Below are positions 30-61,440 of a DNA stretch of 64,000 nucleotides, piece by piece. Source of the DNA: Candidatus Wolfebacteria bacterium GW2011_GWE2_44_13 (GTDB lineage Bacteria; Patescibacteriota; Minisyncoccia; UBA6257; UBA9933); the NCBI GenBank assembly GCA_001000675.1, contig LCHW01000001.1, positions 289,424 to 353,423 on the forward strand, in the 5' to 3' direction. The notes beneath the pieces were generated by a model, which searched no databases, was not told the origin of the DNA, and was given only the letters and a program-made list of their open reading frames with translations. Within the stretch, counting starts at the first letter, position 1; every line of letters begins with the position of its first letter. Position numbers and translations under genes: made by a program.

Positions 30-1271
30 GTGAAAAAACACGCCAGACTTATTTTAACCGGTATTGTACTTGTAGCCGCTTTGGCTGCAGTGTTTGTTCT
101 CCCAATATCGAAAAAACCGTTTGATTTCGGAAAGCAGATCGCTCCATGGAGATTGGGGCTTGATCTTGTTGGTGGGTCGCATCTGGTCTATGAAGTAGAC
201 ATGTCTAATGTCACTGCAAGCGATCGTGATTCGGTCATGAGTGGATTAAAAGACGTTATTGAACGTCGCGTAAATTTATTCGGTGTTAGTGAGCCGCAGG
301 TTGTTACTGCACGAGAAGGAGATTCTTATCGCCTTATCGTTGAGCTTGCCGGTATTCCTGTTGATCAGGCTATTAAGCAAATCGGAGAAACTCCAATGCT
401 TGATTTCCGTGAAGTCATTGAAGTCGGTACATCGACCGCTTTCTTGCCGACACAGCTCACTGGGCGTTATCTAAAAAAGGCGCAAATGACTTTTGATCAA
501 ACAATTGGCACACCAAGCGTGAGCCTTGAGTTTAACGAAGAAGGTGCCGCATTGTTCGAAGAATTAACAGGGCGCAATGTTGGAAAACCGATTGCAATCT
601 TTTTGGACGGACAGCCAATTGAAGTTCCTACTGTAAGCGAAAAAATTTCCGGAGGAACCGCGCAGATTACGGGTAAGTTTACTACTGACGAAGCCCGTAA
701 GATGGTAGAGCGATTTAATGCGGGTGCACTATCTGCTCCTATGGAGTTAGTGAGTCAGCAAACTGTTGGTGCAAGTCTTGGACAAGAGTCATTAAAGAAA
801 GCAGTTAACGCGGGACTTCTTGGAACCATTATCATTATGTTGTTCATGCTCGCATATTATCGCGGGTTTGGATTATACGCATCAATTGCGTTGATTATTT
901 ACATCTTCCTATCATTGGCAATATTTAAGCTTGGTGTCACTATGACCCTTGCTGGTATTGCAGGATACATTCTTTCTATCGGTATGGCTGTTGATGCAAA
1001 CGTGCTTATCTTCGAGCGCACTAAGGAAGAATTGAAAAAAGGTATTTCGAAGTCTGCTGCAATTGAAGAAGGATTTCGCCGTGCATGGCCTTCAATTCGC
1101 GACTCAAACATCTCGACGGGCATTACCTGCGCAATCTTGTTTGTTACTACTTCGAGCTTTGTGAAAGGATTTGCATTGACGCTTGGTATCGGTGTGCTTG
1201 TGAGTATGTTCACGGCAATTACCGTAACTAGATTGCTCATGTACACAATCGCTTTAAAAGCAAAAAAGTAA
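30..1271 (+). CDS. secD: protein-export membrane protein SecD
   Basis: 413-aa ORF with an N-terminal TM segment, a periplasmic domain and a C-terminal six-TM SecD/SecF-type bundle (GLDLVGGSHLVYEV..., ...VDANVLIFER). It is followed immediately by secF. Confidence 0.9.
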   Translation: MKKHARLILTGIVLVAALAAVFVLPISKKPFDFGKQIAPWRLGLDLVGGSHLVYEVDMSNVTASDRDSVMSGLKDVIERRVNLFGVSEPQVVTAREGDSYRLIVELAGIPVDQAIKQIGETPMLDFREVIEVGTSTAFLPTQLTGRYLKKAQMTFDQTIGTPSVSLEFNEEGAALFEELTGRNVGKPIAIFLDGQPIEVPTVSEKISGGTAQITGKFTTDEARKMVERFNAGALSAPMELVSQQTVGASLGQESLKKAVNAGLLGTIIIMLFMLAYYRGFGLYASIALIIYIFLSLAIFKLGVTMTLAGIAGYILSIGMAVDANVLIFERTKEELKKGISKSAAIEEGFRRAWPSIRDSNISTGITCAILFVTTSSFVKGFALTLGIGVLVSMFTAITVTRLLMYTIALKAKK

Positions 1272-1295: not shown

Positions 1296-2183
1296 ATGAA
1301 TATCATAAAAAACAAAGCATGGTTTCTCGGATTTTCCGGCCTATTGATTGTAGCGAGCATTGCTGCACTAGCGCTGTTTGGGCTGAAGACGGGCATCGAT
1401 TTCCGAGGAGGAGCGATGTGGCAAGTTAAGCAGGTTTCTGGAGAGGTTATTATGGATGATGTGGCGTTGAAGAATTTTCTTACCACAAATCTTGAAGATA
1501 AGAATTTTGTGCTGTTTCCTGTTGCAGAAGGGGGATACCTTATCCGCATGGCCGCCGTTTCTGAGGAAATGCACCAACAGTATTTGAGTGATTTGCGAAC
1601 CACGTTTGGCACTATCGAAGAAGGACAATTTCAATCAATTGGTTCTACGATTGGTCAGGAGCTGAAGAACAAGTCACTTTGGGCTATCGTGTACGTTGTT
1701 TTGGGTATTTCTTTGTATGTCACGTATGCATTTCGAAAAGTTTCCTATCCGGTTAAGTCTTGGAAGTACGGTGTCATTACCTTGATAACGCTGTTACATG
1801 ACGTAATTGTGCCGGCAGGAGTATTCGCAGTTCTTGGGTGGAAGTTTGGCATTGAAATAGACACCAATTTTATTGTCGCGTTGCTCGTGGTTATGGGCTT
1901 TTCTGTGCACGATACTATCGTTGTGTTTGACCGAGTTCGTGAAAATGTGCTCAATCACAGTGCGAATACTTCATTTGCCGAGGTTGTAAACAAGAGTATT
2001 AACCAGACATTTGCACGTTCTATCAATACGTCGTTGACCGTTTTGGTTGTACTTGTCGCTCTGTATTTCTTTGGCCCAGCTACTTTACAGTACTTTGTTC
2101 TTACCTTGCTTATCGGTATTGCAATGGGAACATACTCGTCAATATTCGTTGCGAGCCCGCTCTTGACAATATTTCGTAAATGA
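1296..2183 (+). CDS. secF: protein-export membrane protein SecF
   Basis: 295-aa ORF directly downstream of secD with SecF-type TM topology (GIDFRGG..., HDTIVVFDRVREN). Confidence 0.9.
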   Translation: MNIIKNKAWFLGFSGLLIVASIAALALFGLKTGIDFRGGAMWQVKQVSGEVIMDDVALKNFLTTNLEDKNFVLFPVAEGGYLIRMAAVSEEMHQQYLSDLRTTFGTIEEGQFQSIGSTIGQELKNKSLWAIVYVVLGISLYVTYAFRKVSYPVKSWKYGVITLITLLHDVIVPAGVFAVLGWKFGIEIDTNFIVALLVVMGFSVHDTIVVFDRVRENVLNHSANTSFAEVVNKSINQTFARSINTSLTVLVVLVALYFFGPATLQYFVLTLLIGIAMGTYSSIFVASPLLTIFRK

Positions 2184-2223: not shown

Positions 2224-3252
2224 ATGAAGAACGTAGGAAACATAATCGAACACGTAACACACACCCTCTCTGCCCGACAACGAGAAATCGTTGAGGAGCG
2301 GTTTGGGCTTCGGGATAACCAGGAAAAGACCTTACAGGAGCTTGGCGAGCGCAACGGGATTACCCGAGAGCGCGTTCGTCAAATCGAAGCTGAAGGGCTT
2401 CGTTTGGCACGGGAGCATTTTAAGGATAGTGATGGCGACCAGTTGGTTGCTATTGCGAAAGCACACTTAACATCATTAGGTGGCATCCGTAAGGAAAACG
2501 ATTTTGTAAAGGATATGCAGACCATCCTTAAGGATGATTCTGTAAATCAGTGTCAACTTCGCTTCTTGTTCAAGATTGCTGGTGAGCCAATGCACTACAA
2601 CGAAGACGATAGTTTCTATAGCTTCTGGTGCTTAGACAAAGCAATCATCAAGAAAGCAGAAACATTTATCGAAAAGGCAGTAAAGTTTTTTGGAGGGAAA
2701 AAGGAAGAGCTTGTATTTAAAGGCCAGTTCGATCCTCACTTTAAACAGCTTGCGACAGCCTCGAATGTTGATCTCGTTGCGGGTATGGATTACCTGAGCA
2801 TTTCTAAGAAGTTTGCTACCAATCCTTATTCTGATTTTGGACTTTCCCATTGGGAAGAAATAACTCCAAAGACGGCACGCGCAAAGGCATATTTGATCTT
2901 GCGAAAGCATGGCAAGCCAATGCACTTCCGTGACATTGCAGGGACTATTAATACCACTGGATTTGATAAAAAGCCGGTATACGCACAAACAATTCATAAC
3001 GAATTAATCAAGGACAATCGTTTTGTCTTGGTTGGACGAGGTATGTATGGTTTGACTGAACATGGATTTTTCCCAGGAACTGCGAAGGATGTTATCCGAC
3101 AAGTTCTTATTGATAACGGACCGCTTGCACAGCAAAATGTTGTACAGATGGTTTCATCACAGCGATTTCTTAAAGAAAATACTATTTTGCTTAACTTGCA
3201 AAACAAGAAACACTTCAAGCGCTTAGAAGACGGAACATATCACGTTGCATAA
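2224..3252 (+). CDS. sigma-70 region-4-like HTH domain protein with a ~270-aa C-terminal domain of unknown function
   Basis: N-terminal LSARQREIVEERFGL...TLQELGERNGITRERVRQIEAEGLRLAR is a classic sigma-70 region 4.2 helix-turn-helix. No region 2 is visible. A rho-independent terminator follows. Confidence 0.55.
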   Translation: MKNVGNIIEHVTHTLSARQREIVEERFGLRDNQEKTLQELGERNGITRERVRQIEAEGLRLAREHFKDSDGDQLVAIAKAHLTSLGGIRKENDFVKDMQTILKDDSVNQCQLRFLFKIAGEPMHYNEDDSFYSFWCLDKAIIKKAETFIEKAVKFFGGKKEELVFKGQFDPHFKQLATASNVDLVAGMDYLSISKKFATNPYSDFGLSHWEEITPKTARAKAYLILRKHGKPMHFRDIAGTINTTGFDKKPVYAQTIHNELIKDNRFVLVGRGMYGLTEHGFFPGTAKDVIRQVLIDNGPLAQQNVVQMVSSQRFLKENTILLNLQNKKHFKRLEDGTYHVA

Positions 3253-3255
3253 TAA

Positions 3256-3291
3256 AAAAGAAGCACTAACTGTGCTTCTTTTTTTAAACTA
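3256..3291 (+). terminator. rho-independent terminator
   Basis: Hairpin gaagcac-taact-gtgcttc followed by a T-run. Confidence 0.5.
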
Positions 3292-3361
3292 TGTATTAGC
3301 ATGCTAGTTGGCATACGGTTGGTAAAACGGTATACTAGAAAGAGTAAATCATCGAGAGGAT

Positions 3362-4705
3362 ATGCAAGAAATTTTTAATTATTTATTTGGCGGGTTGCCT
3401 ATACCTGCGATTGTGAGTGAGATTGGACTCGGCATCTTGCAGAGTATCTTTGAGGTTTTTTCGTATGTATGGTGGATTGTGCTCCCCGTGTTTCTTTCCT
3501 TTTACTTATGGGATCTGTATGTTGCTGCAAATAAAAAAGCAGCGGGGAAGGCGGCAAAATCTGTCGTACTTGAACTTCGTATTCCAAAAGAGAATCTTCG
3601 CAGCCCAAAGGCTATGGAGCAGGTATTTGCCACACTCCACGGTACGTACGAGGGCGAGATTGGCTGGTGGGATAAAAACATCAAGGGCAAGTCGCAAAGT
3701 TCAATGTCGTTTGAAATGGTTGGACGCAGTGGCGGGGTCTATTTCTATATTCGCGTTCCCGATGGACAACGCAACTTAGTGGAGTCTGCTCTTTTTGCTC
3801 AATATCCGAACGCAGAAATTTCCATTGTCGATGACTATGTTGATTATTTGCCGGCGTCGCTTCCAAACCCCGTGTATGATGTGTGGGGCGCTGACCTGGT
3901 TCTTGATAAAGAGAGTGCATATCCGATAAAGACATACCTCTATTTTGAAGAAAAAGAAGAAGAGCAGCGTCTTGATCCGCTTACGGTTATTTTGGAAACC
4001 ATGTCAAAGTTGCGCGAGAATGAAATGATTTTCTTGCAATACGTTATCAAGGCAACGGGAGAAAAGACAAATGATTACAAAAAGAAAGGACAAGCAATCG
4101 TTGATAAGATGCTTGGCAGGGAAGTAAAGGAAGTTGTGGAGCTGGGTGTGTTTGAGCACTTGTTGTTGTGGGTGCAAAATTTCTTGACCGCGTTTATCGC
4201 TGAGCCGAAGTGGCCAGAACCACCTAAAAAGTCAGAAGCCGCTCCTAAGTCTATCGCATCCCTAAGCTTTACCGAAAAGGAAGTACTTGAAGGAATAGAA
4301 GGGAAAATTTCAAAGTTGTGTTTTGAAGTAAATGTACGTGCGGTGTATATCGACCGACAAGAGTCTTTTCATAAGGCGTATATTAGTGGTATTACAAGTG
4401 CGTTTAAGCAATTTGGATCACATCACATCAATTCATTTAAAACAAACAAAGATACATCAGTAAGCCCACCGAAAGGATTTAAGGCATGGGTATTCTCTGA
4501 TTGGAAAAAACAGCAGGAATATTTGAAAAAGCGTGCGATGTTTACTGCATATAAGGAGCGATCGATGATTAAAAAACCGCCCGTTTTCTCTATTGAAGAA
4601 TTAGCAACACTCTATCACGTACCGACATCGTTGGTGGGTGCTCCAAGTATGCGACGTATTGAGGCAAAGAAAGGCGAGCCACCAGAGAATTTACCTATTG
4701 GATAA
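3362..4705 (+). CDS. membrane protein (two N-terminal TM helices plus ~380-aa soluble domain), partner of the downstream ATPase
   Basis: 447-aa ORF with hydrophobic segments IPAIVSEIGLGILQSIFEVF and WWIVLPVFLSFYLW. It sits 17 nt upstream of the ATPase gene on the same strand. Confidence 0.5.
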   Translation: MQEIFNYLFGGLPIPAIVSEIGLGILQSIFEVFSYVWWIVLPVFLSFYLWDLYVAANKKAAGKAAKSVVLELRIPKENLRSPKAMEQVFATLHGTYEGEIGWWDKNIKGKSQSSMSFEMVGRSGGVYFYIRVPDGQRNLVESALFAQYPNAEISIVDDYVDYLPASLPNPVYDVWGADLVLDKESAYPIKTYLYFEEKEEEQRLDPLTVILETMSKLRENEMIFLQYVIKATGEKTNDYKKKGQAIVDKMLGREVKEVVELGVFEHLLLWVQNFLTAFIAEPKWPEPPKKSEAAPKSIASLSFTEKEVLEGIEGKISKLCFEVNVRAVYIDRQESFHKAYISGITSAFKQFGSHHINSFKTNKDTSVSPPKGFKAWVFSDWKKQQEYLKKRAMFTAYKERSMIKKPPVFSIEELATLYHVPTSLVGAPSMRRIEAKKGEPPENLPIG

Positions 4706-4721
4706 TTGTTCCTAAATACCC

Positions 4722-6593
4722 ATGAGTAACAAAGAAGTTTCAATTTTTGCAAAAACAAATTTTCGCAACCAAAGCGTTAATTTTGGTATCAAGGCGAATG
4801 ACCGATTGCGTCATATGTATCTTATTGGGAAGAGTGGTACGGGAAAAACGACGCTGATGAAAAACTTGATGATCAATGATATCAAGAACGGTTTCGGCGT
4901 TGCGGTGCTTGACCCACATGGAGAATTCGTGGAAGAGCTTTTGAAGCACGTGCCCGAAGACCGTATTAAGGATGTTATCTATGTGAATCCGTCTGATATT
5001 GAAAATCCGGTTGGCTTTAATCCGCTCGAGCGTGTTGGGGAAGAACACGCGCACCTTGTCGCTTCGGCCGTCATGGGCGTATTTCAAAAGATTTGGGTGG
5101 ATGCATGGTCCGCGCGTATGGAATACATTTTAAACAATACATTGTTGGCGTTGCTGGAATATCCAGGCACAACGCTCTTGAGTATTATGCGTATGCTTGC
5201 GGAGAAGGAATATCGTTTGAAGGTTGTGTCTAATTTGAAAGATCCGGTCATTAAATCGTTTTGGGAAAACGAGTTTGCAAAATATACCGACAAATTTATG
5301 ACCGAGGCCATCGCGCCGTTGCAAAACAAGGTTGGGCAATTTAGTTCCAACCCGGTCATCCGTAATATTATCGGGCAGCCAAAATCGACCATCAATATGC
5401 GCAAGGCAATGGATGAAGGAAAGATTCTTATCTGCAATCTTTCGCAGGGAAGATTGGGTGAGGACAATTCCGCACTGCTTGGCGCTATGATCATCACAAA
5501 GATTCAGCTTGCGGCAATGAGTCGTATTGATATGCCCGAGGCAGAACGAAGGCCATTCTTTCTATACATCGATGAGTTCCAAAACTTTTCGACGGGTGCG
5601 TTTACAAAGATTTTTGCTGAAGCCCGCAAGTATGGCCTTGGCCTGGTGCTCGCCCACCAGTACGTCGATCAGCTCAAACAGGAAGAAGGTCTTGCGGAAG
5701 CGATCGTCGGAAACGTCGGTACGTTGGCGATGTTCCGGGTTGGCTCAATTGACGCCATGTTCTTTGAACATGAGTTTGAACCCGAATTCACTCCGCAGGA
5801 TATGATTGGCTTATCAAATCGACATATTTATCTTAAATTATTGGTTGACGGTCAGGCATCTCGACCGTTTTCCGCCGAGACGCTGCCGCCGTATCCAATC
5901 CCACAGCCCAATTACGAGGACGTCATTATTGAAAATTCTCGGAGAAATTACTCAATGCCCAAGGCATTGGTTGATGAAATGATATCCAAAGAATACATGG
6001 GGTCGGGAAAAGCATCGATGGACGACAAGGTTATGCGCCGCGATGAAAAATCACTGGGGTCAATGCTAACTCCTCGCGAACATTCGGCGAAGCGTGACTA
6101 TCCAAGGCAAGATAACAACAATCGCTCTTCAGAGCGACCGAGACCGGCTACATCAAATACTTCTCCTGCAAAACCCGCTTTTGGTGGAGATAGGCGCGTT
6201 GATTCCAATCAGCAGCGACCCTTCGTCCGTCAGGTGACGGATCAGGGTAAGTCCATTGTTCGTCCGCCGATGCACCACGATAAAACGCCTAACCCTGATT
6301 CTGCGTTTGCTAAGATAGTTTCTGGGGAACCTATGTCTCGCCCTGTAACGAACCATGATCGGCCAAAGCATGTGTATGAAAAAAAGCCGGTCAATATTGA
6401 TGACTTGAAAAAGGCAATCGAAGAATCGTTGCAAAAAAGAAAGGAAATTAAGCCCTTCGACTCCGCTCCCTCCTTCGCTAAAGCTGCGGAAGGCAAGCAG
6501 AACAAGCCCCTCGGCGCTGCTCAGGACAAGCAGCCTGAAGAAAAGACTGTGCAACCACCAAAGGATATTGAGGGAAATAGCTCTACCCTTTGA
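4722..6593 (+). CDS. VirD4/TraD/HerA-like P-loop NTPase (coupling-protein-like) with a long disordered C-terminal tail
   Basis: Walker A LIGKSGTGKTTL near the N-terminus, Walker B FFLYIDEFQNF, and LVLAHQY. There is no N-terminal TM segment. The last ~250 aa are low-complexity and rich in P/K/Q/S. Confidence 0.6.
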   Translation: MSNKEVSIFAKTNFRNQSVNFGIKANDRLRHMYLIGKSGTGKTTLMKNLMINDIKNGFGVAVLDPHGEFVEELLKHVPEDRIKDVIYVNPSDIENPVGFNPLERVGEEHAHLVASAVMGVFQKIWVDAWSARMEYILNNTLLALLEYPGTTLLSIMRMLAEKEYRLKVVSNLKDPVIKSFWENEFAKYTDKFMTEAIAPLQNKVGQFSSNPVIRNIIGQPKSTINMRKAMDEGKILICNLSQGRLGEDNSALLGAMIITKIQLAAMSRIDMPEAERRPFFLYIDEFQNFSTGAFTKIFAEARKYGLGLVLAHQYVDQLKQEEGLAEAIVGNVGTLAMFRVGSIDAMFFEHEFEPEFTPQDMIGLSNRHIYLKLLVDGQASRPFSAETLPPYPIPQPNYEDVIIENSRRNYSMPKALVDEMISKEYMGSGKASMDDKVMRRDEKSLGSMLTPREHSAKRDYPRQDNNNRSSERPRPATSNTSPAKPAFGGDRRVDSNQQRPFVRQVTDQGKSIVRPPMHHDKTPNPDSAFAKIVSGEPMSRPVTNHDRPKHVYEKKPVNIDDLKKAIEESLQKRKEIKPFDSAPSFAKAAEGKQNKPLGAAQDKQPEEKTVQPPKDIEGNSSTL

Positions 6594-9105: not shown

Positions 9106-9585
9106 TTATGGGCGAGCGATAAACCAAATGTTATTTACGCCGTGGCCTGTAGTGTCGCCGACGTTCACGTCTTTAATCCAAAAATAGAGCGGCATACCAT
9201 TATAGGTAAGCTGTATTGACCCATCCGCTCTTTGTACTGTTCCGACCTGCCCTGTGATCGTTGAGTCAGCTGCACGCGCTCCTTCTGCGGGGACGATATA
9301 GGGTGGCCAATTTGTGGCGCATGCCCCTGTGCAATTACTTATGCCGATTTTATCATTTGCAAATGTGTAGAGAGAAAAACCGTTTGCTCCAACGATATAG
9401 TTGCCAAGTGTTGCACTGGCCCCTATTTTTAGAACAGCTTCTGTTGCTGTGGCGGGCTGCTGGCGTTCGAGCGAAGTTGGTTCCTGAACCGATTGTGTTG
9501 GAAAGGTCGCCTGATAAGACATTATGTAATAAATGCCTCCAATGATAATAATTCCAACAATCACCCCAATAATTTTCTTATTCAT
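9106..9585 (-). CDS. secreted/lipoprotein with two Yx(FWY)xxD-type repeats (COG4315-like)
   Basis: Likely start is MNKKIIGVIVG..., a signal/TM segment. Two repeats (GFSLYTFANDKIGISNCTGACATNWPPY and GMPLYFWIKDVNVGDTTGHGVNNIWFIA) are characteristic of the 'secreted repeat of unknown function' family. Confidence 0.6.
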   Translation of the reverse strand: MNKKIIGVIVGIIIIGGIYYIMSYQATFPTQSVQEPTSLERQQPATATEAVLKIGASATLGNYIVGANGFSLYTFANDKIGISNCTGACATNWPPYIVPAEGARAADSTITGQVGTVQRADGSIQLTYNGMPLYFWIKDVNVGDTTGHGVNNIWFIARP

Positions 9586-9739
9586 ATTGTGTTTTTGAAA
9601 CAAATGAATTCGACCTTTATGGAAATGTCTTATAAGTAGTATAACAAAATATACCAACGCAATCTATCTTGATAGGTTTGATAAGTTAGTGTATAAAGAA
9701 CTTAGAATAGGGAAAATAAAAAGCAAGGAGGAAAAGCAG

Positions 9740-10078
9740 ATGGCGACGAGAATTTTTGATGAGAAAGCATTAGCAAAAGGCTATCCCATTCAGCCAAGGG
9801 ATATTGACTGGGAAAAAGATTTTTTGAGCATCTTTAGTCCTACTCCTACGGCCAATGCAGCCCGCACTCTTGGCAAGCTCGCACTTGAAAAAGGGGGTTG
9901 GGACCCGTTTACGAGAGAAGAAATTCGCAAGTTTTCTGGCAGCCTTCTCTTTTGCGGACTTTCGGGCGGAGATACATCATCCGCGGAAAAGCTCATTGTC
10001 CTTGGAAAGGATGGCAAGTACAGATATACGGAAGAATTTATCCGTCTCTGCCACTTGGCTTCTTTAACGGTTAAATAG
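9740..10078 (+). CDS. hypothetical protein
   Basis: ATG at 9740 is preceded by aaggagg (9725-9731). 112-aa product. A terminator hairpin follows at ~10097-10130. Confidence 0.4.
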   Translation: MATRIFDEKALAKGYPIQPRDIDWEKDFLSIFSPTPTANAARTLGKLALEKGGWDPFTREEIRKFSGSLLFCGLSGGDTSSAEKLIVLGKDGKYRYTEEFIRLCHLASLTVK

Positions 10079-10206
10079 GTCTGTAGAGGTACTATCGAAG
10101 CCCTGCATTGCGTGGGGCTTCTTTTTTTATTGTAGACTCTTGCGGAATGGCGTATAAGAGGGGATCGGTTTAAACAATACAGTTAATAGCGTATAATAAG
10201 ACCATT

Positions 10207-12381
10207 ATGGTCCATGATTTATTGAAAGATACAACGGTTACCTACACCTGTTCGATGCACCCCGAAATTACATCGGAAACTCCAGGAAACTGCCCTAAGT
10301 GTGGCATGGGGCTTGTTTTGCAAGGTTCAACCGATGTTGCACTTCCGGGAGCTATTCCTCATGCATCTGATAAGCATGCGGGTCATACGGCAGCGTCTTT
10401 TTTGCGTAAATTTTGGATTGGACTATTGTTAAGTATTCCCGTTGTGTTGTACTCGGAGCTTCCTGAGGTACTACTAGGTGTGCGCATGCCTACATTCCCT
10501 GGGATGCAGTATCTTGGACCATTATTAGGCTCAATCATTTTTTTCTATGGCGGGTGGATTTTTCTTATTGGCGCGGTTAATGAAATTCGTGCAAAGTTGC
10601 CGGGGATGATGACACTTATTTCGCTTGCTATTGTGAGTGCGTATACCTATAGCATGTATGTTTTTGCTATAGGAGCTACGCATGCATTGTTCTGGGAGCT
10701 CGCAACGCTTATCACAATTATGTTATTGGGACATTATTTGGAAATGCGTTCGATTGATACGGCTCAGCACGCTTTGCGTGAGCTTGCTGCCTTATTGCCT
10801 GATACCGCCGAGATAATGGTTGGGCAAGTTACCCGCGGCGTTACGTTAGCAGAGCTAAATGTAAACGATCTTGTTATTGTAAAGCCAGGAGGAAAAATTC
10901 CAGCCGATGGTGTTGTTATTGAGGGAGAGTCTCAGGTGAATGAATCAATGATGACTGGCGAATCGAAACCGGTTGAGAAGAAGGTTAATAGCACTGTTGT
11001 GGCTGGAACAATTAATGGAGATGGACGATTAGTTGTTGCAATTACAAGAATTGGCGAAGGCACTTTTTTGGCGGGGGTTATGCGACTTGTTGCCGGTGCA
11101 CAAACGTCAAAGTCGCGATTACAGGTACTTGCCGACAAGACTGCTTTTTATTTAACAGGTATTGCAATTGTAACCGCGCTAAGTACGCTATTTATTTGGC
11201 TTTCGCTGGATAAGGGGACTGCTTTTGCGATGGAGCGTTTTATCGCCGTATTAGTTGTCGCATGTCCGCATGCACTGGGGCTCGCAGTGCCGCTTGTTGT
11301 TGCGATTTCAACCTCGATCGCTTCGCGTAATGGACTATTTATTAAAGATCGCCTTGCGCTTGAAGCAGCACGAACAATTGATATCGTATTGTTTGATAAA
11401 ACAGGCACGTTAACCGAGGGAGCGTATGGAGTGAATGCAATTATCCCCCTTACTAACACAACCACCGACGCAGATAAACAGGCTACTGTTGCGGCTCGTG
11501 AACAGGAGAATATTTTACGACTCGCTGCTTCGCTTGATTTTGCATCTGAACACCCTGTTTCACGTGCTATTGCAGGAGAGGCGATGAAGCGGGGTATTGA
11601 ACTCTTTCCCGTGACGCACTTTGTTCGAGTGCCTGGGAAAGGGGTAAGAGGGATTGTTCGCGGTATGCGTGTTGAAATTGGCGGTGAATCGCTAGTCGGA
11701 TCTAAAATGATAGATGGACTAGTGCAGGATGTGCATAGGGAGATAGCGCTTCTCGCAGGTAAGGGGCAGACAATCGTGTATGTTATGGCTGATGATAATC
11801 CGATTGGTGTTATTGCACTTGCCGACATTATTCGTCCTGAGGCAAAAGAGGCGATTGTTGCTTTGAAACGCCTCGGCATAAAGCCAGTTATGGTTACGGG
11901 AGATGCTGAGGAAGTTGCTGAATGGGTTGCACAGGATGTGGGTATTGCTGAATATTTCTTCCGCGTATCACCTCATGATAAAGTAGAAAAAATAAAAGCA
12001 TATCAAGAAAAAGGACTACGGGTTGCGATGGTTGGTGATGGTGTTAATGATGCTGCTGCATTGATGCAGGCAAATGTAGGTATTGCAATTGGTGCGGGAA
12101 CAAACGTCGCAATTGAATCAGCGGGTATTGTGTTGGCCAAAAACGATCCACGTGATGTTGTTAAAATAATTCGATTGGCGCGATTAACCTATCGCAAGAT
12201 GGTACAGAATTTATTCTGGGCTGCTGGCTATAATGTTATTGCCATTCCACTTGCTGCAGGAGCTTTGTATGCATGGGGTATTGTATTATCGCCCGCGATT
12301 TCTGCCATATTTATGTCAGTGAGTACGATTATCGTTGCTGCAAACGCATTGTTATTACGTCGAAATGGGCAGGTACTATAG
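10207..12381 (+). CDS. copper-translocating P1B-type ATPase (CopB-like, CPH motif)
   Basis: Motifs DKTGTLT, GDGVNDAAAL, TGES and transmembrane CPH (VVACPHALG). The N-terminal CxxC...CxxC metal-binding module (CSMHPE...CPKCGM) is followed by a His-rich stretch. Confidence 0.85.
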   Translation: MVHDLLKDTTVTYTCSMHPEITSETPGNCPKCGMGLVLQGSTDVALPGAIPHASDKHAGHTAASFLRKFWIGLLLSIPVVLYSELPEVLLGVRMPTFPGMQYLGPLLGSIIFFYGGWIFLIGAVNEIRAKLPGMMTLISLAIVSAYTYSMYVFAIGATHALFWELATLITIMLLGHYLEMRSIDTAQHALRELAALLPDTAEIMVGQVTRGVTLAELNVNDLVIVKPGGKIPADGVVIEGESQVNESMMTGESKPVEKKVNSTVVAGTINGDGRLVVAITRIGEGTFLAGVMRLVAGAQTSKSRLQVLADKTAFYLTGIAIVTALSTLFIWLSLDKGTAFAMERFIAVLVVACPHALGLAVPLVVAISTSIASRNGLFIKDRLALEAARTIDIVLFDKTGTLTEGAYGVNAIIPLTNTTTDADKQATVAAREQENILRLAASLDFASEHPVSRAIAGEAMKRGIELFPVTHFVRVPGKGVRGIVRGMRVEIGGESLVGSKMIDGLVQDVHREIALLAGKGQTIVYVMADDNPIGVIALADIIRPEAKEAIVALKRLGIKPVMVTGDAEEVAEWVAQDVGIAEYFFRVSPHDKVEKIKAYQEKGLRVAMVGDGVNDAAALMQANVGIAIGAGTNVAIESAGIVLAKNDPRDVVKIIRLARLTYRKMVQNLFWAAGYNVIAIPLAAGALYAWGIVLSPAISAIFMSVSTIIVAANALLLRRNGQVL

Positions 12382-13725: not shown

Positions 13726-13770
13726 GGTTGATTTTTCGCTCAGTATCCCTATAATAAATAGGCTAATAAT

Positions 13771-13841
13771 GGGCCTGTAGTCTAGTGGTAGAACACGGCA
13801 TTCGCATTGCTGAGACGCGAGTTCGATTCTCGCCAGGTCCA
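13771..13841 (+). tRNA. tRNA-Ala (anticodon CGC)
   Basis: Manual fold: acceptor GGGCCUG/CAGGUCC with the G3:U70 Ala identity pair. Anticodon loop UUCGCAU. T-loop GTTCGATTC. CCA is not encoded. Confidence 0.8.
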
Positions 13842-14029
13842 CCCATATGCAAAAAGAACTCCGGAATGATTCTTTTTGCTACTTTTCTTGCTTTGTATGG
13901 GATATAATTAAGGGGAAATAGTCGTTGGCTCTTTATTATGCTCGGATCGGCGTGGAGTTTTGTGTTACTACGATTCCATGCTGACCTGACCGTTTGGAAA
14001 ATCAAATTAATAGTCGCTCAATCAAAACC

Positions 14030-14824
14030 ATGGAAGATATAAACGAAAAGCAAAAAGAAGTTGCAGAAACAAAGGTGTGCCCATTCTGCAGGAAAGAAAT
14101 ATCCATAGAGGCTACGAAGTGCCCCTATTGTCAATCAACCTTAATAACAGATAAAAATGCAAAATTAATTTTGATGTCGTCGTTAGGTTTATTTTTGATT
14201 TCATTTGGGGCCTTTATATTTTTCATTTCCATATTTTCTGCAGTCTTTGGAATAAATGTTACGCAGTATGTATGGTGGCTTATTATTCCATTTGCGCTAG
14301 GATTTATTTGGAAAAAACAAAAAATGGGTCAACAGAAGAAAATAGAATCCTCGCCAAGTCTTAAAAAAATTCCACTTCTAATATGGGCGCTCATTCTGTT
14401 GGTGGCGCCAATAGTAATAGTGGGGGTAATTTTTTTAGGAATTGTAATTATGGCCCCTGCGCCTTCTAATAGAAATAGTGCTCCCGTAATAAATACTCCT
14501 GCTCAACAAAAGGGTATCCAAGTGACAGCGATTCAGCTCGCAACAGATTATGAAGCGAATGAAATAGCCGCAGATACGAAGTATAAAGACCAGATTGTTG
14601 AGGTGACAGGAACGATTAAAGATATTAGTAAGGACATACTCGGTGCACCCTATATTATTTTAAGTGGGGACCCAAACTCGATTACAGATGTGCAGTGTAC
14701 CTTTGATAAGAGTAAACAAAACCAGCTTATACCGCTTACTAAAGATACAAAGATCACGCTACTTGGGAAAGTAAGCAGAAAACTTCTTAATGTACGTGTT
14801 GATGAGTGTTCTATAATTCAATAA
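14030..14824 (+). CDS. zinc-ribbon membrane protein, hypothetical
   Basis: Start MEDINEKQ. N-terminal CPFC...CPYC zinc ribbon, multiple TM helices and a ~150-aa C-terminal domain. AT-rich codon usage. Confidence 0.5.
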   Translation: MEDINEKQKEVAETKVCPFCRKEISIEATKCPYCQSTLITDKNAKLILMSSLGLFLISFGAFIFFISIFSAVFGINVTQYVWWLIIPFALGFIWKKQKMGQQKKIESSPSLKKIPLLIWALILLVAPIVIVGVIFLGIVIMAPAPSNRNSAPVINTPAQQKGIQVTAIQLATDYEANEIAADTKYKDQIVEVTGTIKDISKDILGAPYIILSGDPNSITDVQCTFDKSKQNQLIPLTKDTKITLLGKVSRKLLNVRVDECSIIQ

Positions 14825-15054
14825 ATTGTGTAATGCAAAAGAGCCTTAAATGGCTCTTTTTTATCCTATATTTAGGCTCCATGGCCTATTTCTGGGTTGG
14901 TAGAGTGACGCTGGGGAAACCTTTATTAAAGAGATATATAAACTACCATCTTTAGATTTGGAAGGGTTTCTGCGTCACGATTCTTGATATGTGAGAAGTT
15001 GGTTTGATTTATGCTCTGATTAAGGCAGGGCCTATATATGGAAAATCTAAAAAA

Positions 15055-15084
15055 TTGACAATAGGGTCTTGTTTTCGGGATAAT
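15055..15084 (+). promoter_or_regulatory. sigma70-like promoter (TTGACA-18 nt-GATAAT) upstream of the PHP-ATPase gene
   Basis: ttgaca at 15055-15060 and gataat at 15079-15084. RBS aaagggga lies before the ATG at 15113. Confidence 0.4.
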
Positions 15085-15112
15085 AGGTGCACAAAGGGGA
15101 ACATCTAATTAA

Positions 15113-17887
15113 ATGCCTAATAATAATCAATTTTTAAATGGTTCTGAGTGGCGCAAATGGGATTTACACGTCCATGCCCCTGGATCAAAACAACAGGAGT
15201 TGTATGTAACGGAGGATGGGAGCAATCCATTGGATGTTTTTTGTGACATTATAGAGCAATCTGATACCGATGTTTTTGGAATAACAGATTATTTTTCCGT
15301 AGAGAACTACTTTATTTTTCTTGAGTGGTTTAAGACAAAATTCCCTGATTCAAAGAAGGCGTTTTTCCCAAATATTGAATTTCGATTGGATGATAAAAAT
15401 AAAGAAAGTGACTATGTAAATTTTCATGTTATTTTTTCTGATGAAGTTGCGCAGGACGATATACAGAAATTTTTATGTGATATTGAACTTAAAAATTTGC
15501 ATCCTGATGGAGGGGGTTCAACTTTAAAGTGTAATCCAATTGATCTTGGAATGATTGGGTATGATAAAGCACTTGTGACCATCGATGCTATATTAGAGTC
15601 TCATAAAAAAACTTTTGGCAAGAGGGATATTTCCTTTATGTGTGGAGTTGCAAACGGATATGGTGGTATCAGGCCACCCCAGCAACAGGGGCGCCATACG
15701 GAATATGCAAAAATTGTTGACGATGTGTGCCAAATTTTTTTTGGGAGAGCTCAAGATAAAGACTTCTTTTTAGGCACTACTCGTTATGAGGGGTCAATAA
15801 GTAAGCCAGTAATATGCGGGTGTGATGCGCATTCATTTGATCAACTTAACGCATGGTTGGGGAAGCAAGTAATTAGTAATAACGAAAAGGGAGAAAGTTA
15901 TATTGAAAAGGATGTTACTTGGATTAAAGCTGACCAGACCTTTGAAGGTTTGCGCCAAATTCTTTATGAGCCAAGTGATAGGGTAAAAATTCAAGAGCAT
16001 TCTCCTTATGCAGATAATAGCAAAATATATTTTAAATCCCTTGATTTATCGGGCAGTGTAAATTTTATTTTGCCCGATATTGAACTACCGATAAATAGGG
16101 AGCTTGTAGCTATAATTGGTGGGAGAGGTAGTGGGAAAAGCGCCCTTTTGGATACTTTTGCTTTTTTAAATGAAGAGCATCTTAAAAAAGATCAGAATGG
16201 TAAAAAGAAAATAATCGAATATTATCGAGATAATGAGGGGTATGTAGAACCACGCCCTTCTTTTATGCTTACTACGACCCTAGTTGATAAGGATGGAGTT
16301 GAGCAGGATTTTGAAAAAACGCTTATTGATAGAGATGATATAGAGCTGCCCTTTTTATATCTCGGGCAGGAACAGTTAAGTGGTATTGCAACGAATGATT
16401 CTGAGCTTACGCGTACCGTTTGCCAATTGATTGGTATTGATATAAATGAAATTGGTACGGAAAGTCTTATTGCGCGTGCACGCACGACTCTTAGCGACAT
16501 TAATAATACTCGGAAATCACTTAGTGATATTTATGAAAGGTGTGCTTTAGTTGGGTATGTTCTTGGAACTGATATTACAGTTTGGTTAAGAGAGTATTGT
16601 AACAAGTTAAAAGAGCAGCAAAAAAGACTTTCTTCTAGGGAGACAAGGGATGTTCTAGAAGATATAAGTACTAAAACAAAGCGAGGTTTGAGGCTTAAAG
16701 ATTTAAATGAAAAAGTAGCCGTTCTCCTATCGACTCTAAAGGACATACCACTTAATGTCGAAATTAGTGCATTCAATCTTCAATTGAGAGAAATTTATAC
16801 CGACTGCCCAGAGCTTGCGCCTTTAAGCTCATCTTCTCAGATAGCAGCAGTTATAGCTCTCCAAAATAGAATAACAGCAGAAATGGATAAGTTGCGAACG
16901 GAAATTGCAACAAAGAAAATCGAGTTGATTAAGCAAGATATTAAGGAAGATGTAAATAGTCTTTTGCAGGCAAGCGAATCGCTTGAGCGTGAGATTGGCG
17001 TGGTTGAAAAAGATCAAAAAAACTGCGCTGATGCCGTTCTTAGGCTTGAAAATTTACATATTCAGCGTGGTAAAATTTTAGAGGATATTCAAACTTCTCT
17101 TAAATCGCTTGGCGAATCTATCTCTTCTGCCTTCAATTCTTTTCAGGGGTCTCGCTCTGATTCGATTACTATTGAGAAAGAATTGTTTGAGAAGATGATT
17201 AAAGGGATTAGTATAGAAGGGGCTATCGAGTTTAATCAAAGGGTATTTGCTAATAAGGTATTGACTGAGTTTGTGGATAGACGAACAGTCCCGAATGAAA
17301 TTACTCTGAGAGAATTAATAGCTGGTAAAAATACAGATGGCACAATAAAAGAGATTACACTTGAGAACCTTTTTTTGTGGGCACAATCTGATTTAGGTTC
17401 GCAAAAATGCTTCAGCCGTGGCGGGCTAGATAATTTAGTTGAGTACATTTTTACAGAATGGCCCGATTTTTTGAAAGTAAGGGCGGTGGCAAAACTTAAT
17501 GGAAAATCTACTGAAGTTCTATCTATCGGACAGCGAGGCACCTTGCTTTTGAAAGTGTATCTTGCGACAGCATCAGCAAAACAAGTTTTTGTAATCGACC
17601 AACCAGAGGATAATCTTGATAATAATTTTATAATGAATGAGCTTGTTCCGTTGATTCGAAATGCGAAACGCTCTAGGCAAATCATAATGTCTACCCATAA
17701 TGCAAACTTGGTTGTTAATGCAGATGCGGAGCAGGTGATTATAGCCCAGCTAGATCATCATCCGGCTGGCAGCTATTTAACTGGCAGTATTGAAGCCCCC
17801 GAAATAAATAAAAATATTAGGGATATTCTTGAGGGTGGCGAAGAAGCTTTTAGACAACGCGAGCGTAAATATTTTTTTAAGAGCTAA
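15113..17887 (+). CDS. PHP-domain phosphoesterase fused to Rad50/SbcC-like split ABC ATPase with a coiled-coil insert
   Basis: N-terminal PHP motif WRKWDLHVHAPGS. Rad50/RecF-type N-terminal head with Walker A (VAIIGGRGSGKSALLD). ~350-aa heptad-rich coiled-coil region. C-terminal ABC signature LSIGQRGTLLLK, Walker B/D-loop QVFVIDQPEDNLD and H-loop MSTHNANLV. Confidence 0.75.
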   Translation: MPNNNQFLNGSEWRKWDLHVHAPGSKQQELYVTEDGSNPLDVFCDIIEQSDTDVFGITDYFSVENYFIFLEWFKTKFPDSKKAFFPNIEFRLDDKNKESDYVNFHVIFSDEVAQDDIQKFLCDIELKNLHPDGGGSTLKCNPIDLGMIGYDKALVTIDAILESHKKTFGKRDISFMCGVANGYGGIRPPQQQGRHTEYAKIVDDVCQIFFGRAQDKDFFLGTTRYEGSISKPVICGCDAHSFDQLNAWLGKQVISNNEKGESYIEKDVTWIKADQTFEGLRQILYEPSDRVKIQEHSPYADNSKIYFKSLDLSGSVNFILPDIELPINRELVAIIGGRGSGKSALLDTFAFLNEEHLKKDQNGKKKIIEYYRDNEGYVEPRPSFMLTTTLVDKDGVEQDFEKTLIDRDDIELPFLYLGQEQLSGIATNDSELTRTVCQLIGIDINEIGTESLIARARTTLSDINNTRKSLSDIYERCALVGYVLGTDITVWLREYCNKLKEQQKRLSSRETRDVLEDISTKTKRGLRLKDLNEKVAVLLSTLKDIPLNVEISAFNLQLREIYTDCPELAPLSSSSQIAAVIALQNRITAEMDKLRTEIATKKIELIKQDIKEDVNSLLQASESLEREIGVVEKDQKNCADAVLRLENLHIQRGKILEDIQTSLKSLGESISSAFNSFQGSRSDSITIEKELFEKMIKGISIEGAIEFNQRVFANKVLTEFVDRRTVPNEITLRELIAGKNTDGTIKEITLENLFLWAQSDLGSQKCFSRGGLDNLVEYIFTEWPDFLKVRAVAKLNGKSTEVLSIGQRGTLLLKVYLATASAKQVFVIDQPEDNLDNNFIMNELVPLIRNAKRSRQIIMSTHNANLVVNADAEQVIIAQLDHHPAGSYLTGSIEAPEINKNIRDILEGGEEAFRQRERKYFFKS

Positions 17888-17962
17888 TTAAGATAAGGCG
17901 TTTTATCTGCTGGCAGAATTTTTTGAACCATGGTATTATTTTGAATAAATGTCTACACAAAT

Positions 17963-18910
17963 ATGGAAATAGAAATTTTTGAAGAAGATGGTAGCAATAC
18001 ACTTTCTCTTAGCGATAAAGACGTTGATTTTACTATTAACGTAGACACGGAGTCAAAAACTTATAGGTCAAGAATGAGTTTAAATGATGATGTCTATTAT
18101 CGCACGGAAAATTTTCAATATAGAATTTCTGTAGACCCTATTCGCCTTGAAGTTCGATTAGTTGCGCGACTCGATGAACCGCCACCTGACAAATACTCAG
18201 TCAAAGATGGGGTAGTTTTGGAGTCTGAAATTCTTGCAGACCGAGGTGAACTTATGGCTTCAATGACTAAGGAATTTATTAATGGCCTCAAAAAAGAAGT
18301 TGAATGGCATGAGGAGTGGGTTGGCGACCCTGTTTCCATGTACCTCCTTTTAAAGCACCCTGAAATAATTTCCCCCGATGATTACCGACGTCACTTGCGA
18401 CAGTTAGCAGAAAAAATAAAGTCAGCAACTCTTAAAGTTAGGAAAGCACTTGAACTAGATAAAACGGGTTTGCAAATAACCGATGAGTACGAAGGTTCAG
18501 GGCGTGCAATTTGGTATTCGAAATCAAAACAGGACGGAATGTCCGAAGAGGAAATCAATGACGCCATAAAGCACCAGAAAAAAGTTCAAGAGAGATTGTT
18601 TGATGAGAAATCAAATGAATATGTCGGCATTTCCGAAAGTGAGTTTAGGTCGAGCGACCAAATACTAAAATATATTGATGTGTTTCTGAGTAAGAAGTCC
18701 GCGCCTACCAAAAAAGAAGAAAAGAACAAGGCATCTTTTGGTATTAACTTTGGAGCTTTTATTATTAAATGGATTTGGCTATTTGTTGTTGTGTCTGTAG
18801 CCCTCGGGCTACTTTCTTTGATTGTTAACATCCTTCAATACGATTTTACCTTTGCGTTTGTTACTTCGGGCATCTTGGCGTTTTCCCTAATTCTTCGACA
18901 GAATAAGTGA
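17963..18910 (+). CDS. hypothetical protein with a C-terminal two-TM membrane anchor, partner of the PHP-ATPase
   Basis: 315-aa ORF 75 nt downstream on the same strand. Soluble ~250-aa N-terminal domain, then FGINFGAFIIKWIWLFVVVSVALGLLSLIV and FAFVTSGILAFSLIL. Confidence 0.55.
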   Translation: MEIEIFEEDGSNTLSLSDKDVDFTINVDTESKTYRSRMSLNDDVYYRTENFQYRISVDPIRLEVRLVARLDEPPPDKYSVKDGVVLESEILADRGELMASMTKEFINGLKKEVEWHEEWVGDPVSMYLLLKHPEIISPDDYRRHLRQLAEKIKSATLKVRKALELDKTGLQITDEYEGSGRAIWYSKSKQDGMSEEEINDAIKHQKKVQERLFDEKSNEYVGISESEFRSSDQILKYIDVFLSKKSAPTKKEEKNKASFGINFGAFIIKWIWLFVVVSVALGLLSLIVNILQYDFTFAFVTSGILAFSLILRQNK

Positions 18911-32651: not shown

Positions 32652-32762
32652 TTAATCGGACTTTTGCATAGAAAAACCCGTTCCTTGTGGACGGGTTTTT
32701 TGGTATACTAGTCGTAACGTAATGGAATATTCATTTTCGCCTCAATGAGTATTGTATAATTT

Positions 32763-58768: not shown

Positions 58769-59056
58769 ATGCATTACGTGTATATTATCAGGAGTGATAA
58801 AAATGGTAAGTTGTATAAAGGATCAACCTGTGATTTAAAAACGCGATTACGTGAACATAATAGCGGTGTGACGCAATCTACGAAGGCTTACGCTCCGTGG
58901 CGATTAGTGTATTATGCGGTATTTGCGGATAAGACAGACGCGTTGCGTGAGGAGTTGTTTTTAAAGAGTGGCAAAGGGAGAGAGCGTGTAAACTTTTTAC
59001 TTGCCAATACTCTTGTGAGATGCCAAAATACAAAGAATATTGGAGGGGTCGCATAG
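58769..59056 (+). CDS. GIY-YIG nuclease-superfamily protein
   Basis: MHYVYIIRSDKNGKLYKGSTCDLKTRLREHN carries the GIY-YIG catalytic motifs. 95 aa. The stop codon lies inside the first 15 nt of tRNA-Ser. Confidence 0.6.
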   Translation: MHYVYIIRSDKNGKLYKGSTCDLKTRLREHNSGVTQSTKAYAPWRLVYYAVFADKTDALREELFLKSGKGRERVNFLLANTLVRCQNTKNIGGVA

Positions 59057-59126
59057 TGGCCGATTGCGCTCGCTTGGAAAGCGGGTATACCGCAAGGTAT
59101 CAAGGGTTCGAATCCCTTCCCCTCCG
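59042..59126 (+). tRNA. tRNA-Ser (anticodon GGA), class II with long variable arm
   Basis: Acceptor GGAGGGG/CCCCUCC and discriminator G. Anticodon loop UUGGAAA. Variable-arm hairpin UAUACC-GCAA-GGUAUC. T-arm AAGGG-UUCGAAU-CCCUU. Confidence 0.8.
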
Positions 59127-59374
59127 CACATAGCAACATAAGCGCCTACTCTTTACGGGTAGGCGTTTATGTTGCTGCTATGAGTGGAGATAAAGAGGGA
59201 TTCGAAAACTACTTTTAAAAGCAAACTGCTTTGCTTTTAAAAGAGTCGGCGATGGAGGAGTTTCGAAGCTTGTTTCGAGTATTCGAGGAACGCTGAGTAA
59301 CGGGGGAAGAGGAATCCCTTCCCCTCCGCCATTTAGAATAGGTATTCCAATGAGATATTTGGCAAATTGATTCT

Positions 59375-60377: not shown

Positions 60378-60381
60378 GCTT

Positions 60382-60720: not shown

Positions 60721-60739
60721 CTTTAATATCCTTGAGTTT

Positions 60740-61105: not shown

Positions 61106-61122
61106 GTAAGAATATATACACC

Positions 61123-61431: not shown

Positions 61432-61440
61432 TATATAGTA

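Follow-up and report, generated by a model that had tools for sequence, protein, structure and literature searches.

The question raised by positions 3,362 to 6,593 of the DNA examined here, a stretch of 64,000 nucleotides (referred to below as the window) on contig LCHW01000001.1 of Candidatus Wolfebacteria bacterium GW2011_GWE2_44_13, is what kind of machine is encoded by two adjacent genes, ORF1 and ORF2 (open reading frames 1 and 2), the first of which specifies a membrane protein and the second a P-loop ATPase without transmembrane (TM) segments. An interpretation made from the letters alone (the sequence-only reading) had proposed a type IV coupling protein (T4CP) split into two chains. 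We find that the two genes very likely (probability about 0.9) encode the halves of one ancestral protein, divided by gene fission at its interdomain linker. The notion of a split coupling protein is upheld by profile matches, by the co-occurrence of both genes and by fused relatives, but ORF1 is more than the missing TM domain, comprising an anchor and a domain of about 360 aa with a predicted likeness to the N-terminal domain of VirB4. With this composition the pair would reproduce a VirB3-VirB4-like architecture around a T4CP-like motor, and the probability that it serves as the coupling-type motor of a type IV secretion system (T4SS) is put at roughly one half (0.45–0.55).

Two genes corresponding to one protein

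The division of a single protein becomes apparent from relatives in which both parts are joined. In PHROG 5156, an 824-position profile of unknown function, ORF1 covers 66–330 (E 8e-12) and ORF2 covers 395–807 (E 2.4e-70). Relatives of ORF2 were detected by tblastn in 60 phage genomes, chiefly those of SPO1-like Bacillus phages and phage G; tblastn with ORF1 returned nothing from phage genomes, but profile methods did make the connection, as the profile of DUF8128 (the Pfam family of ORF1) aligns to the N-terminal half of phage G gp156 (825 aa; probability 97.9%, E 6e-13) and of SPO1 gp27.4 (906 aa; probability 84.8%, E 6.6e-6). A database search with gp156 yielded approximately 90 Patescibacteria proteins of 725–1142 aa (P0269–P0360) that carry both PF26449 (DUF8128) and PF10412, from lineages that include Berkelbacteria, Falkowbacteria, Saccharibacteria and Gottesmanbacteria.

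These fused proteins align to ORF1 through its residue 445–447 and then to ORF2 from about residue 4, with a gap of 2–12 aa; in P0269, for example, residues 25–446 of ORF1 correspond to 8–381 and residues 5–422 of ORF2 to 389–803, the ATPase part being 53% identical. Because the alignments end at the C-terminus of ORF1 and resume near the start of ORF2, the break between the two genes falls exactly at the interdomain linker, and the disordered, conserved peptide KKGEPPxxLP at the end of ORF1 corresponds, by alignment, to that linker. The N-terminal anchor of ORF1 is missing from the fused proteins of 726–743 aa and from the phage forms. Another member made as one polypeptide is SEML1_0293 of Southlakia epibionticum ML1 (921 aa, TrwB_AAD_bind at 402–719), which Wang et al. 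2023 (Tables S1, S2) place in a core family enriched in Patescibacteria; the layout of the protein, together with P0300, a homologue from Saccharibacteria, leads us to infer that its N-terminal 360 residues are DUF8128-like. The family as a whole extends across Patescibacteria, in most other lineages of which it is fused, and reaches into Bacillus phages and plasmids of Clostridium.

The two-gene form is itself conserved. A species scan (one genome per species) gave at least 584 loci with a DUF8128 relative, the best 80 of which were analysed for synteny and identity; all of them lie in Patescibacteria-type metagenome-assembled genomes or isolates, some mislabelled. Homologues of both genes occur together in 78 of these 80 species-level loci, which bears out the co-occurrence expected of a split protein: an ATPase gene on the same strand lies within the 6 kb examined downstream in the 78, and directly next to the DUF8128 gene in 77, at a spacing of 8 to about 490 nt from the DUF8128 match. 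The exceptions are L062, at a contig end, L032, without the ATPase, and the cultured species Minisyncoccus archaeiphilus PMX.108 (chromosome; L065 7384–10878), where a gene for a 1164-aa type IV pilin-like protein (FTLIELLVIIAIIAILA N-terminus) stands between the two. Identity over the 80 loci is 53–66% for the ATPase and 32–51% for DUF8128. The two-gene split is therefore a property of the whole class (Paceibacteria-type genomes), and the profile of DUF8128 retrieves 3,596 representatives at 50% clustering (E ≤ 1e-3), or 1,156 at E ≤ 1e-30; an alignment scan found no copy of the Candidate Phyla Radiation (CPR) type in viral contigs.

The same split was seen in three independent assemblies of the source organism, ORF1 is 100% identical to ACD_81C00219G0013 from an uncultured groundwater bacterium, and the closest relatives that bear a name belong to Candidatus Wolfebacteria. 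Conservation of the split, and the constraint on both halves, rule out that it arose from pseudogene decay or as an artefact of assembly or frameshift. One of the loci has two ATPase paralogues 0.8 kb apart, the downstream one (L034 5641–6873) sharing 44% identity with ORF2.

The N-terminal half: anchor and predicted VirB4-like domain

ORF1 had been described as a large membrane protein with two TM helices, a description that could not be sustained. Its hydrophobicity is confined to residues ~8–55, and the conserved TM segment lies at ~33–55 (YVWWIVLPVFLSFYLW), preceded by a less conserved hydrophobic segment; among 120 homologues, one hydrophobic segment is present in 95 and two in 15, and the AlphaFold model has a single long helix at residues 16–64. 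The remainder of the protein is a soluble domain of about 360 aa, which is probably cytoplasmic in view of the lysine-rich stretch that follows the TM segment.

A precomputed Pfam match to DUF8128 (PF26449) exists for the identical protein P0001 and for all 120 listed homologues. ORF1 itself drew no match in local scans with Pfam and NCBIfam, the local Pfam copy being without the PF26449 model, and a sequence-profile search against the PDB returned nothing. The predicted structure was more informative: the AlphaFold model (81 homologues; predicted local distance difference test (pLDDT) 85.8, predicted template modelling score 0.79) gave, in a Foldseek search, 13 top matches that are all chains of TrwK (E 2.8e-6 to 4e-3). 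ORF1 is without a P-loop, and no P-loop ATPase other than TrwK is among the matches, from which we infer that the part matched must be the VirB4 N-terminal domain (aligned ranges were not reported by the search).

Conservation is pronounced at the C-terminus, where the columns E412–T416, H419, P421, P441 and P445 are invariant, and residues 427–447 have a pLDDT below 50.

The C-terminal half: a coupling-protein-like motor

For ORF2 the sequence-only reading was borne out in its basic points, as were the coordinates and strand that it gave for both genes: the P-loop and the motif FFLYIDEFQNF could be located, and not a single 19-residue window exceeds 1.6 on the Kyte-Doolittle scale. Across 94 homologues, residues G36, G39, K42, D284, E285 and Q287 show no variation. 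Four Pfam models are passed, namely PF10412 TrwB_AAD_bind (54.1 bits, cut-off 20.5), PF02534 T4SS-DNA_transf (31.2, cut-off 20.1), PF12696 TraG-D_C (25.5, cut-off 22) and DUF87 (44 bits), so that the best profile matches do not belong to a non-translocase family, and an all-alpha domain is inserted in the motor, as is characteristic of coupling proteins. A profile built from the 94 homologues aligns in hhalign to TrwB 118–393 (probability 96%, E 2e-9), and to TrwK/VirB4 at the P-loop only. By sequence, ORF2 may thus be assigned to the VirB4/VirD4 clade of P-loop ATPases, nearest to the coupling proteins. Its modelled fold would be about equally close to the C-terminal domain of VirB4 (28.8), to DndH-C (28.1) and to TrwB (26.9), followed by DotL (24.2).

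Assignment to an established family was less successful. The VirB4-type model AAA_10 is matched under threshold (23.4 against 27.5), and none of the sequence models for a VirB4-type C-terminal ATPase (AAA_10, P-loop_TraG, CagE_TrbE_VirB) is passed. Every NCBIfam match is far under its curated cut-off (best conju_CD1115, 50.4 bits against 250), and this distance from the equivalog models for TraD/TraG/VirD4-like proteins is one of the differences from classical coupling proteins. Neither an FtsK-type motor with a gamma domain (binding FtsK-orienting polar sequences, KOPS) nor the features of HerA, including a HAS-barrel and an effector partner, were recognized in ORF2 (14 bits against 970 for NCBIfam helicase_HerA), and the pair has no NurA-like neighbour.

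Matches in PADLOC prompted the idea that the pair might serve in defence against phages or plasmids, with an ATPase of the DndH, Mad8 or HerA type. These matches reflect the common motor fold and there are none for ORF1; no effector, methylase or nuclease partner was found, and the synteny is a fixed housekeeping one in 80 species, in a core family and not in a variable island. We regard a defence function as highly improbable.

The C-terminal tail of ORF2

The tail of ORF2 had been described as some 250 residues of extremely low complexity with repeated motifs, unusual for this class of ATPase, and none of these statements could be retained. Residues 400–450 are folded and conserved, and the disordered part comprises residues 454–623 (about 170 aa with a pLDDT below 50, except for a helix at 559–574 with a pLDDT of about 90). 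Shannon entropy in the tail is 3.4–3.8 bits per 50 aa against 3.7–4.0 in the core, the tail DNA contains no tandem repeat, and QQRP is found once; the composition is that of a polar, disordered segment and not of an extremely low-complexity one. Among coupling proteins, unstructured C-terminal extensions that end in a partner-binding site have precedent, for example in the F-plasmid TraD, which binds TraM. A flexible tail with a short conserved motif is therefore characteristic of the class and not an anomaly of ORF2.

Whether the tail is conserved among homologues, as had been suggested for checking, has a divided answer. The lengths of ORF2 homologues range from 478 to 676 aa (median 500), clustered at 480–500 aa with a minority up to 676, and an alignment reveals a common plan: two helices (DVIIENSRRxY...VEEKIxxEW and EEKVxRRxEQPL), a polar linker that varies from 20 to 200 residues, an amphipathic helix and a short charged end. 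Length is thus variable in the linker, while the amphipathic helix is conserved in split-type homologues. Its consensus is (I/V)(D/N)IxDL(K/R)KAIEESL, and a strict regular expression recovered it from 73 of 120 split-type ATPases, whereas the 92 fused CPR proteins and the 28 phage-type proteins gave no match; judged from these sequences, the tail helix VNIDDLKKAIEESL is specific to the split subfamily. Fused and phage-type proteins have different lineage-specific tail motifs, e.g., SFLDEWLAKK in Saccharibacteria. In SEML1_0293, which also has a disordered tail with a terminal element, residues 901–920 (of 921) share one ECOD domain with the P-loop core in the structure-based annotation of Wang et al. 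2023, which suggests a terminal element packed on the motor.

Relation to type IV secretion systems

The strongest ties of the family to type IV secretion come from relatives in other genomes. P0335, a fused member on a 996-kb Patescibacteria contig, lies in divergent orientation beside PrgI (VirB3-like), two AAA_10/P-loop_TraG (VirB4-type) genes and Peptidase_M23, which together constitute a Patescibacteria T4SS cluster. In phage G, the VirB4-type gp155 (P-loop_TraG 1.6e-15; AAA_10) directly precedes the fused gp156 (L086 1196–2845 and 2861–5338), and the two form a T4SS-like pair of ATPases in a jumbo phage. On the Clostridium botulinum plasmid pRSJ10_1 (L092 6588–9388), a family member of 800 aa directly follows a TrbC/VirB2 gene, which overlaps its start; the C-terminal half of this protein matches the ATPase profile (probability 98.9%, E 2.8e-17), the match of its N-terminal part to DUF8128 being weak (E 3.5e-4). 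This 800-aa protein has no match in the local Pfam, and 18 Clostridium plasmids carry such a member.

Further plasmid-borne relatives of the ATPase were seen. The nearest is a stand-alone protein of 395 aa encoded beside transposases on a non-mobilizable alphaproteobacterial plasmid (Sulfitobacter mediterraneus, L091 6986–8173), with 40% identity across 90% of the query; relatives at 27–32% identity occur on haloarchaeal, Sulfolobus and Streptomyces plasmids.

The phage members have been described before. Pathria et al. 2012 assigned orf201 of 0305phi8-36 and gp27.4 of SPO1 to a "DNA translocation operon" as its VirD4-like coupling ATPase, an operon in which a MobC-type relaxase and a VirB6-like protein are encoded as well; the N-domain of this ATPase has no TM helix, and deletion of the operon gave no laboratory phenotype (PMC3357382). 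These proteins, together with gp156 (PHROG 5156), are true homologues of both halves of the pair. They differ in being fused, in having no membrane anchor, in their low identity (25–29%), in being dispensable for growth in the laboratory, and in lying beside a MobC-type relaxase and VirB6- or VirB4-like genes, whereas the conserved CPR neighbour is unrelated to the relaxase.

With type IV coupling proteins (TrwB, VirD4, TraD, TraG) the pair shares the P-loop motor with an inserted helical domain, the profile matches, and relatives that adjoin VirB4-type genes as a second ATPase. It differs from them in that there is no TM domain in the ATPase chain, the anchor sitting on ORF1; in that the N-terminal part is a separate protein resembling the VirB4 N-domain and not a bare TM hairpin; and in that the pair is chromosomal, phylum-wide and in housekeeping synteny, with neither relaxase nor mating-pair-formation genes in the window. 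With VirB3-VirB4 (TrwM-TrwK in R388; fused in some systems) it shares the succession of an anchor, an N-domain of about 350 aa and a P-loop domain of about 400 aa, the fused relatives totalling about 800–900 aa. Unlike VirB4, ORF1 is without detectable similarity to the TrwK sequence, and in both Patescibacteria and phage G a genuine VirB4-type ATPase is encoded separately, next to family members. As far as modelling allows, then, the pair resembles VirB4 in fold and architecture and departs from it in sequence and gene context. As it agrees only in part with either the coupling proteins or VirB4, it is set apart here as a distinct branch, a DUF8128-linked T4CP-like ATPase, and is filed neither as VirD4 nor as VirB4.

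On the preferred reading, that of a coupling-type motor of a T4SS, ORF1 would tether a hexameric ring of ORF2 at the cytoplasmic face of the membrane, in the role of VirB3 and the VirB4 N-domain, and its C-terminal peptide would dock on the motor. Driven by ATP, ORF2 would feed a polymer across the membrane as the second, coupling-type ATPase of a monoderm-type T4SS; the substrate would most likely be nucleic acid, given the family's kin and the relaxase link of the phages, or possibly protein. The disordered tail may present its helix as a tethered autoregulatory or partner/adaptor-binding element in the style of TraD and TraM. Consistent with such a mechanism, ORF1 carries the only membrane anchor of the pair, the catalytic motifs of ORF2 are intact, and family members adjoin VirB4-type ATPases in several unrelated genomes.

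A number of observations weigh against this reading. As the sequence-only reading had stated, no further T4SS-type genes are found in the window, either in Pfam scans of the 24 larger ORFs or by tblastn with the R388 proteins TrwK, TrwM and TrwB (taken from NC_028464), among which TrwB alone matches, at ORF2; no VirB3, VirB6, VirB8 or pilin genes lie beside the pair in the window. Comparison of the ORF1/DUF8128 profile with TrwK in hhalign gave no significant sequence similarity, and the link between ORF1 and the VirB4 N-domain is one of predicted structure only. In the survey of Quinonero-Coronel et al. 2025, 5,713 VirD4-like proteins were found in 2,918 Patescibacteria genomes, only 148 of the 5,713 near virB4 and with relaxases rare, and exaptation was raised as a possibility (PMC12102498). 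In S. epibionticum the T4SS is essential, yet SEML1_0293 was called non-essential in transposon sequencing (normalized reads 5817, 2940 and 1372 at T0 to T2, with neighbours flat; Wang et al. 2023), which means that the protein is not an obligatory T4SS part in that species. Finally, the conserved neighbours of the pair, SecDF and a protein with sigma-r4 (sigma70 region 4) and HARE-HTH domains, do not belong to a T4SS, and the coupling model offers no explanation for them.

Parts of this picture were already known, i.e., DUF8128 as a Pfam family, the census of orphan coupling proteins and the phage description of 2012. Our literature search found no paper naming DUF8128 and none describing the VirB4-N-like fold, the conservation of the two-gene form in Paceibacteria-type genomes, the tail helix or the synteny with SecDF and the sigma-r4/HARE-HTH gene. 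Patescibacteria represent a large share of bacterial diversity, are dependent on host cells and have an essential T4SS in their cultivated model. For the thousands of "orphan" VirD4-like ATPases recently surveyed in them, which are perhaps exapted, a defined architecture may now be proposed, consisting of an anchor, a VirB4-like N-domain and a coupling-type motor; the family also has phage and plasmid kin encoded next to genes for VirB4, VirB2 and relaxases, and candidate interaction elements are available in the C-terminal peptide of ORF1 and the tail helix of ORF2.

Conserved gene neighbourhood and alternative functions

The sequence-only reading missed the conserved upstream neighbours. The gene order in the window is SecD, SecF, sigma-r4/HARE-HTH, ORF1, ORF2, EF-P, a small membrane protein and MnmA, all surrounding genes being of the housekeeping kind, and the order SecD-SecF-(sigma-r4/HARE-HTH)-DUF8128-ATPase recurs among the 80 loci: 71 have the sigma-r4/HARE-HTH gene immediately 5' of DUF8128, 56 have SecF and 53 have SecD, while the downstream EF-P and MnmA vary in presence and strand. 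The sigma-r4/HARE-HTH protein of the window is without sigma region 2. It was also considered as a diverged form of the phage relaxase SPO1 gp27.3, of phage G gp155 or of gp27.9, to none of which any similarity was found.

In the window, an intrinsic terminator (RNA fold −16.1 kcal/mol, z −5.9) ends the sigma-r4/HARE-HTH gene, and a promoter-like site precedes ORF1. Because these two elements separate the pair from the upstream gene, ORF1 and ORF2, with a spacer of 16 nt between them (4706–4721; ORF2 starts 17 nt past the last base of ORF1), probably form their own bicistronic transcription unit; the promoter evidence is weak, since promoter-like sites in the region are no more numerous than expected by chance.

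The presence of SecD-SecF two genes upstream in 53–56 of the 80 loci, and beside tandem fused paralogues in L090, would agree with a motor for protein export or membrane-protein handling tied to SecDF, similar to EccC/EccE, as would the type IV pilin-like gene between the two genes in M. archaeiphilus. Synteny by itself is weak evidence, and SecDF is not beside the family in S. epibionticum or in three of four fused contexts. The likeness to EccE/EccC of type VII secretion is much weaker than that to the systems above, the number of motor domains is not EccC-like and no other Ecc genes are present; sequence and structure are nearer to T4CP, VirB4 and DndH, which handle nucleic acids, than to EccC, and no signal-recognition or substrate-binding domain was recognized. 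We therefore consider a Sec-linked motor very unlikely. The L090 locus (9268–11447), in which SecD-SecF lies beside the two tandem fused paralogues, belongs to another lineage.

The DNA-binding neighbour suggests a further possibility, that of a nucleic-acid translocase independent of a T4SS: a membrane-tethered pump for DNA or RNA (import, export or segregation), similar to FtsK/SpoIIIE or the archaeal Ced system, which might work with the adjacent sigma-r4/HARE-HTH protein. That neighbour is kept in the 71 loci and in S. epibionticum, where SEML1_0294, immediately upstream of SEML1_0293, is a sigma-r4/HARE-HTH protein that is essential and Patescibacteria-enriched (Wang et al. 2023). Most family members, the present pair included, are far from virB4, ORF2 has a weak N-terminal match in NCBIfam to the DNA-translocating ATPase CedD, and Patescibacteria are without nucleotide synthesis, a cultured member importing host RNA by an unresolved route (bioRxiv 10.64898/2026.06.21.733656). 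Set against this, the strong terminator and the promoter-like site part the HARE-HTH gene from the pair here; in S. epibionticum the HARE-HTH protein is essential and the ATPase is not, which points to differing functions; four fused paralogues have no HARE-HTH neighbour; and the CedD match is limited to the P-loop region (38.7 bits against a cut-off of 600). Saccharibacteria moreover have FtsK (PMC10768705), and for this reason, and because the fold is nearer to T4SS ATPases, replacement of FtsK was rejected as the main idea. On balance, a T4SS-independent pump is judged unlikely, although it is the foremost rival to the coupling reading.

Somewhat more doubtful still is a related proposal, in which the pair would be a core, largely T4SS-unlinked "VirB4/VirD4 intermediate" of ancestral type that imports host-derived RNA or DNA into the Patescibacteria cell. 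If import of host nucleic acid were true, the pair would be an energizing component of scavenging by nucleotide-auxotrophic epibionts and would bear on how they feed; if the intermediate position were true, the common ancestor of VirB4 and the coupling proteins would already have had a VirB4-type N-domain. Should the motor not move host nucleic acid, it would still shed light, as an intermediate, on how the two families of T4SS ATPases evolved.

Features of the locus and other observations in the window

The coordinates of the pair, its domains and motifs, and the conserved upstream genes are given in Table 1.

Table 1. Features of the ORF1-ORF2 locus (positions in the window)
Feature	Residues	Position	Strand	Remarks
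SecD		30–1271	+	conserved farther 5' of the pair
SecF		1296–2183	+	conserved farther 5' of the pair
Sigma70 region 4 + HARE-HTH protein, 342 aa	14–60 (sigma70 region 4), 221–278 (HARE-HTH)	2224–3252	+	Pfam
Intrinsic terminator GAAGCAC-TAACT-GTGCTTC + T7		3254–3284	+	ends the sigma-r4/HARE-HTH gene
Promoter-like site TTGGCA-17-TATACT		3308–3336	+	ahead of ORF1; consensus scan, 10/12 matches
ORF1 (DUF8128, N-terminal half of split ATPase), 447 aa		3362–4705	+	ORF list
ORF1 membrane anchor	~8–55	3383–3526	+	Kyte-Doolittle windows >1.6
ORF1 soluble domain, predicted VirB4-N-terminal-domain-like fold	~66–425	3557–4636	+	
ORF1 C-terminal motifs EELATLYHVP and KKGEPPENLPIG	412–421; 436–447 (disordered)	4595–4702	+	conserved columns
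ORF2 (TM-less VirB4/VirD4-clade P-loop ATPase with C-terminal tail), 623 aa		4722–6593	+	
ORF2 Walker A GKSGTGKT	36–43	4827–4850	+	
ORF2 Walker B region FFLYIDEFQNF	279–289	5556–5588	+	
ORF2 post-motor helices DVIIENSRRNY..VDEMISKEY and DDKVMRRDEKSL	400–445	5919–6056	+	C-terminal alignment; pLDDT 77–97
ORF2 disordered variable linker	~454–553	6081–6380	+	pLDDT <50
ORF2 amphipathic helix VNIDDLKKAIEESLQKRK	557–574	6390–6443	+	near-universal in split-type homologues

Elsewhere in the window, positions 13770–18910 contain a tRNA-Ala followed by a stretch of low GC content (0.37 against ~0.43) that encodes a tRNA_anti-like protein with an oligonucleotide/oligosaccharide-binding fold, a 924-aa AAA_21/SMC_N/AAA_13 ATPase and a 315-aa ORF without a Pfam match; this region resembles a tRNA-adjacent island and is possibly a defence module. 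A second low-GC stretch (60001–62000; 0.368) lies near a tRNA-Ser (59042–59127), and a 301-aa ORF in it (61257–62162) has no Pfam match. Two neighbouring multi-PAS proteins, one of which is a histidine kinase, are encoded at 30375–33944, a fairly elaborate sensing capacity for a reduced genome.

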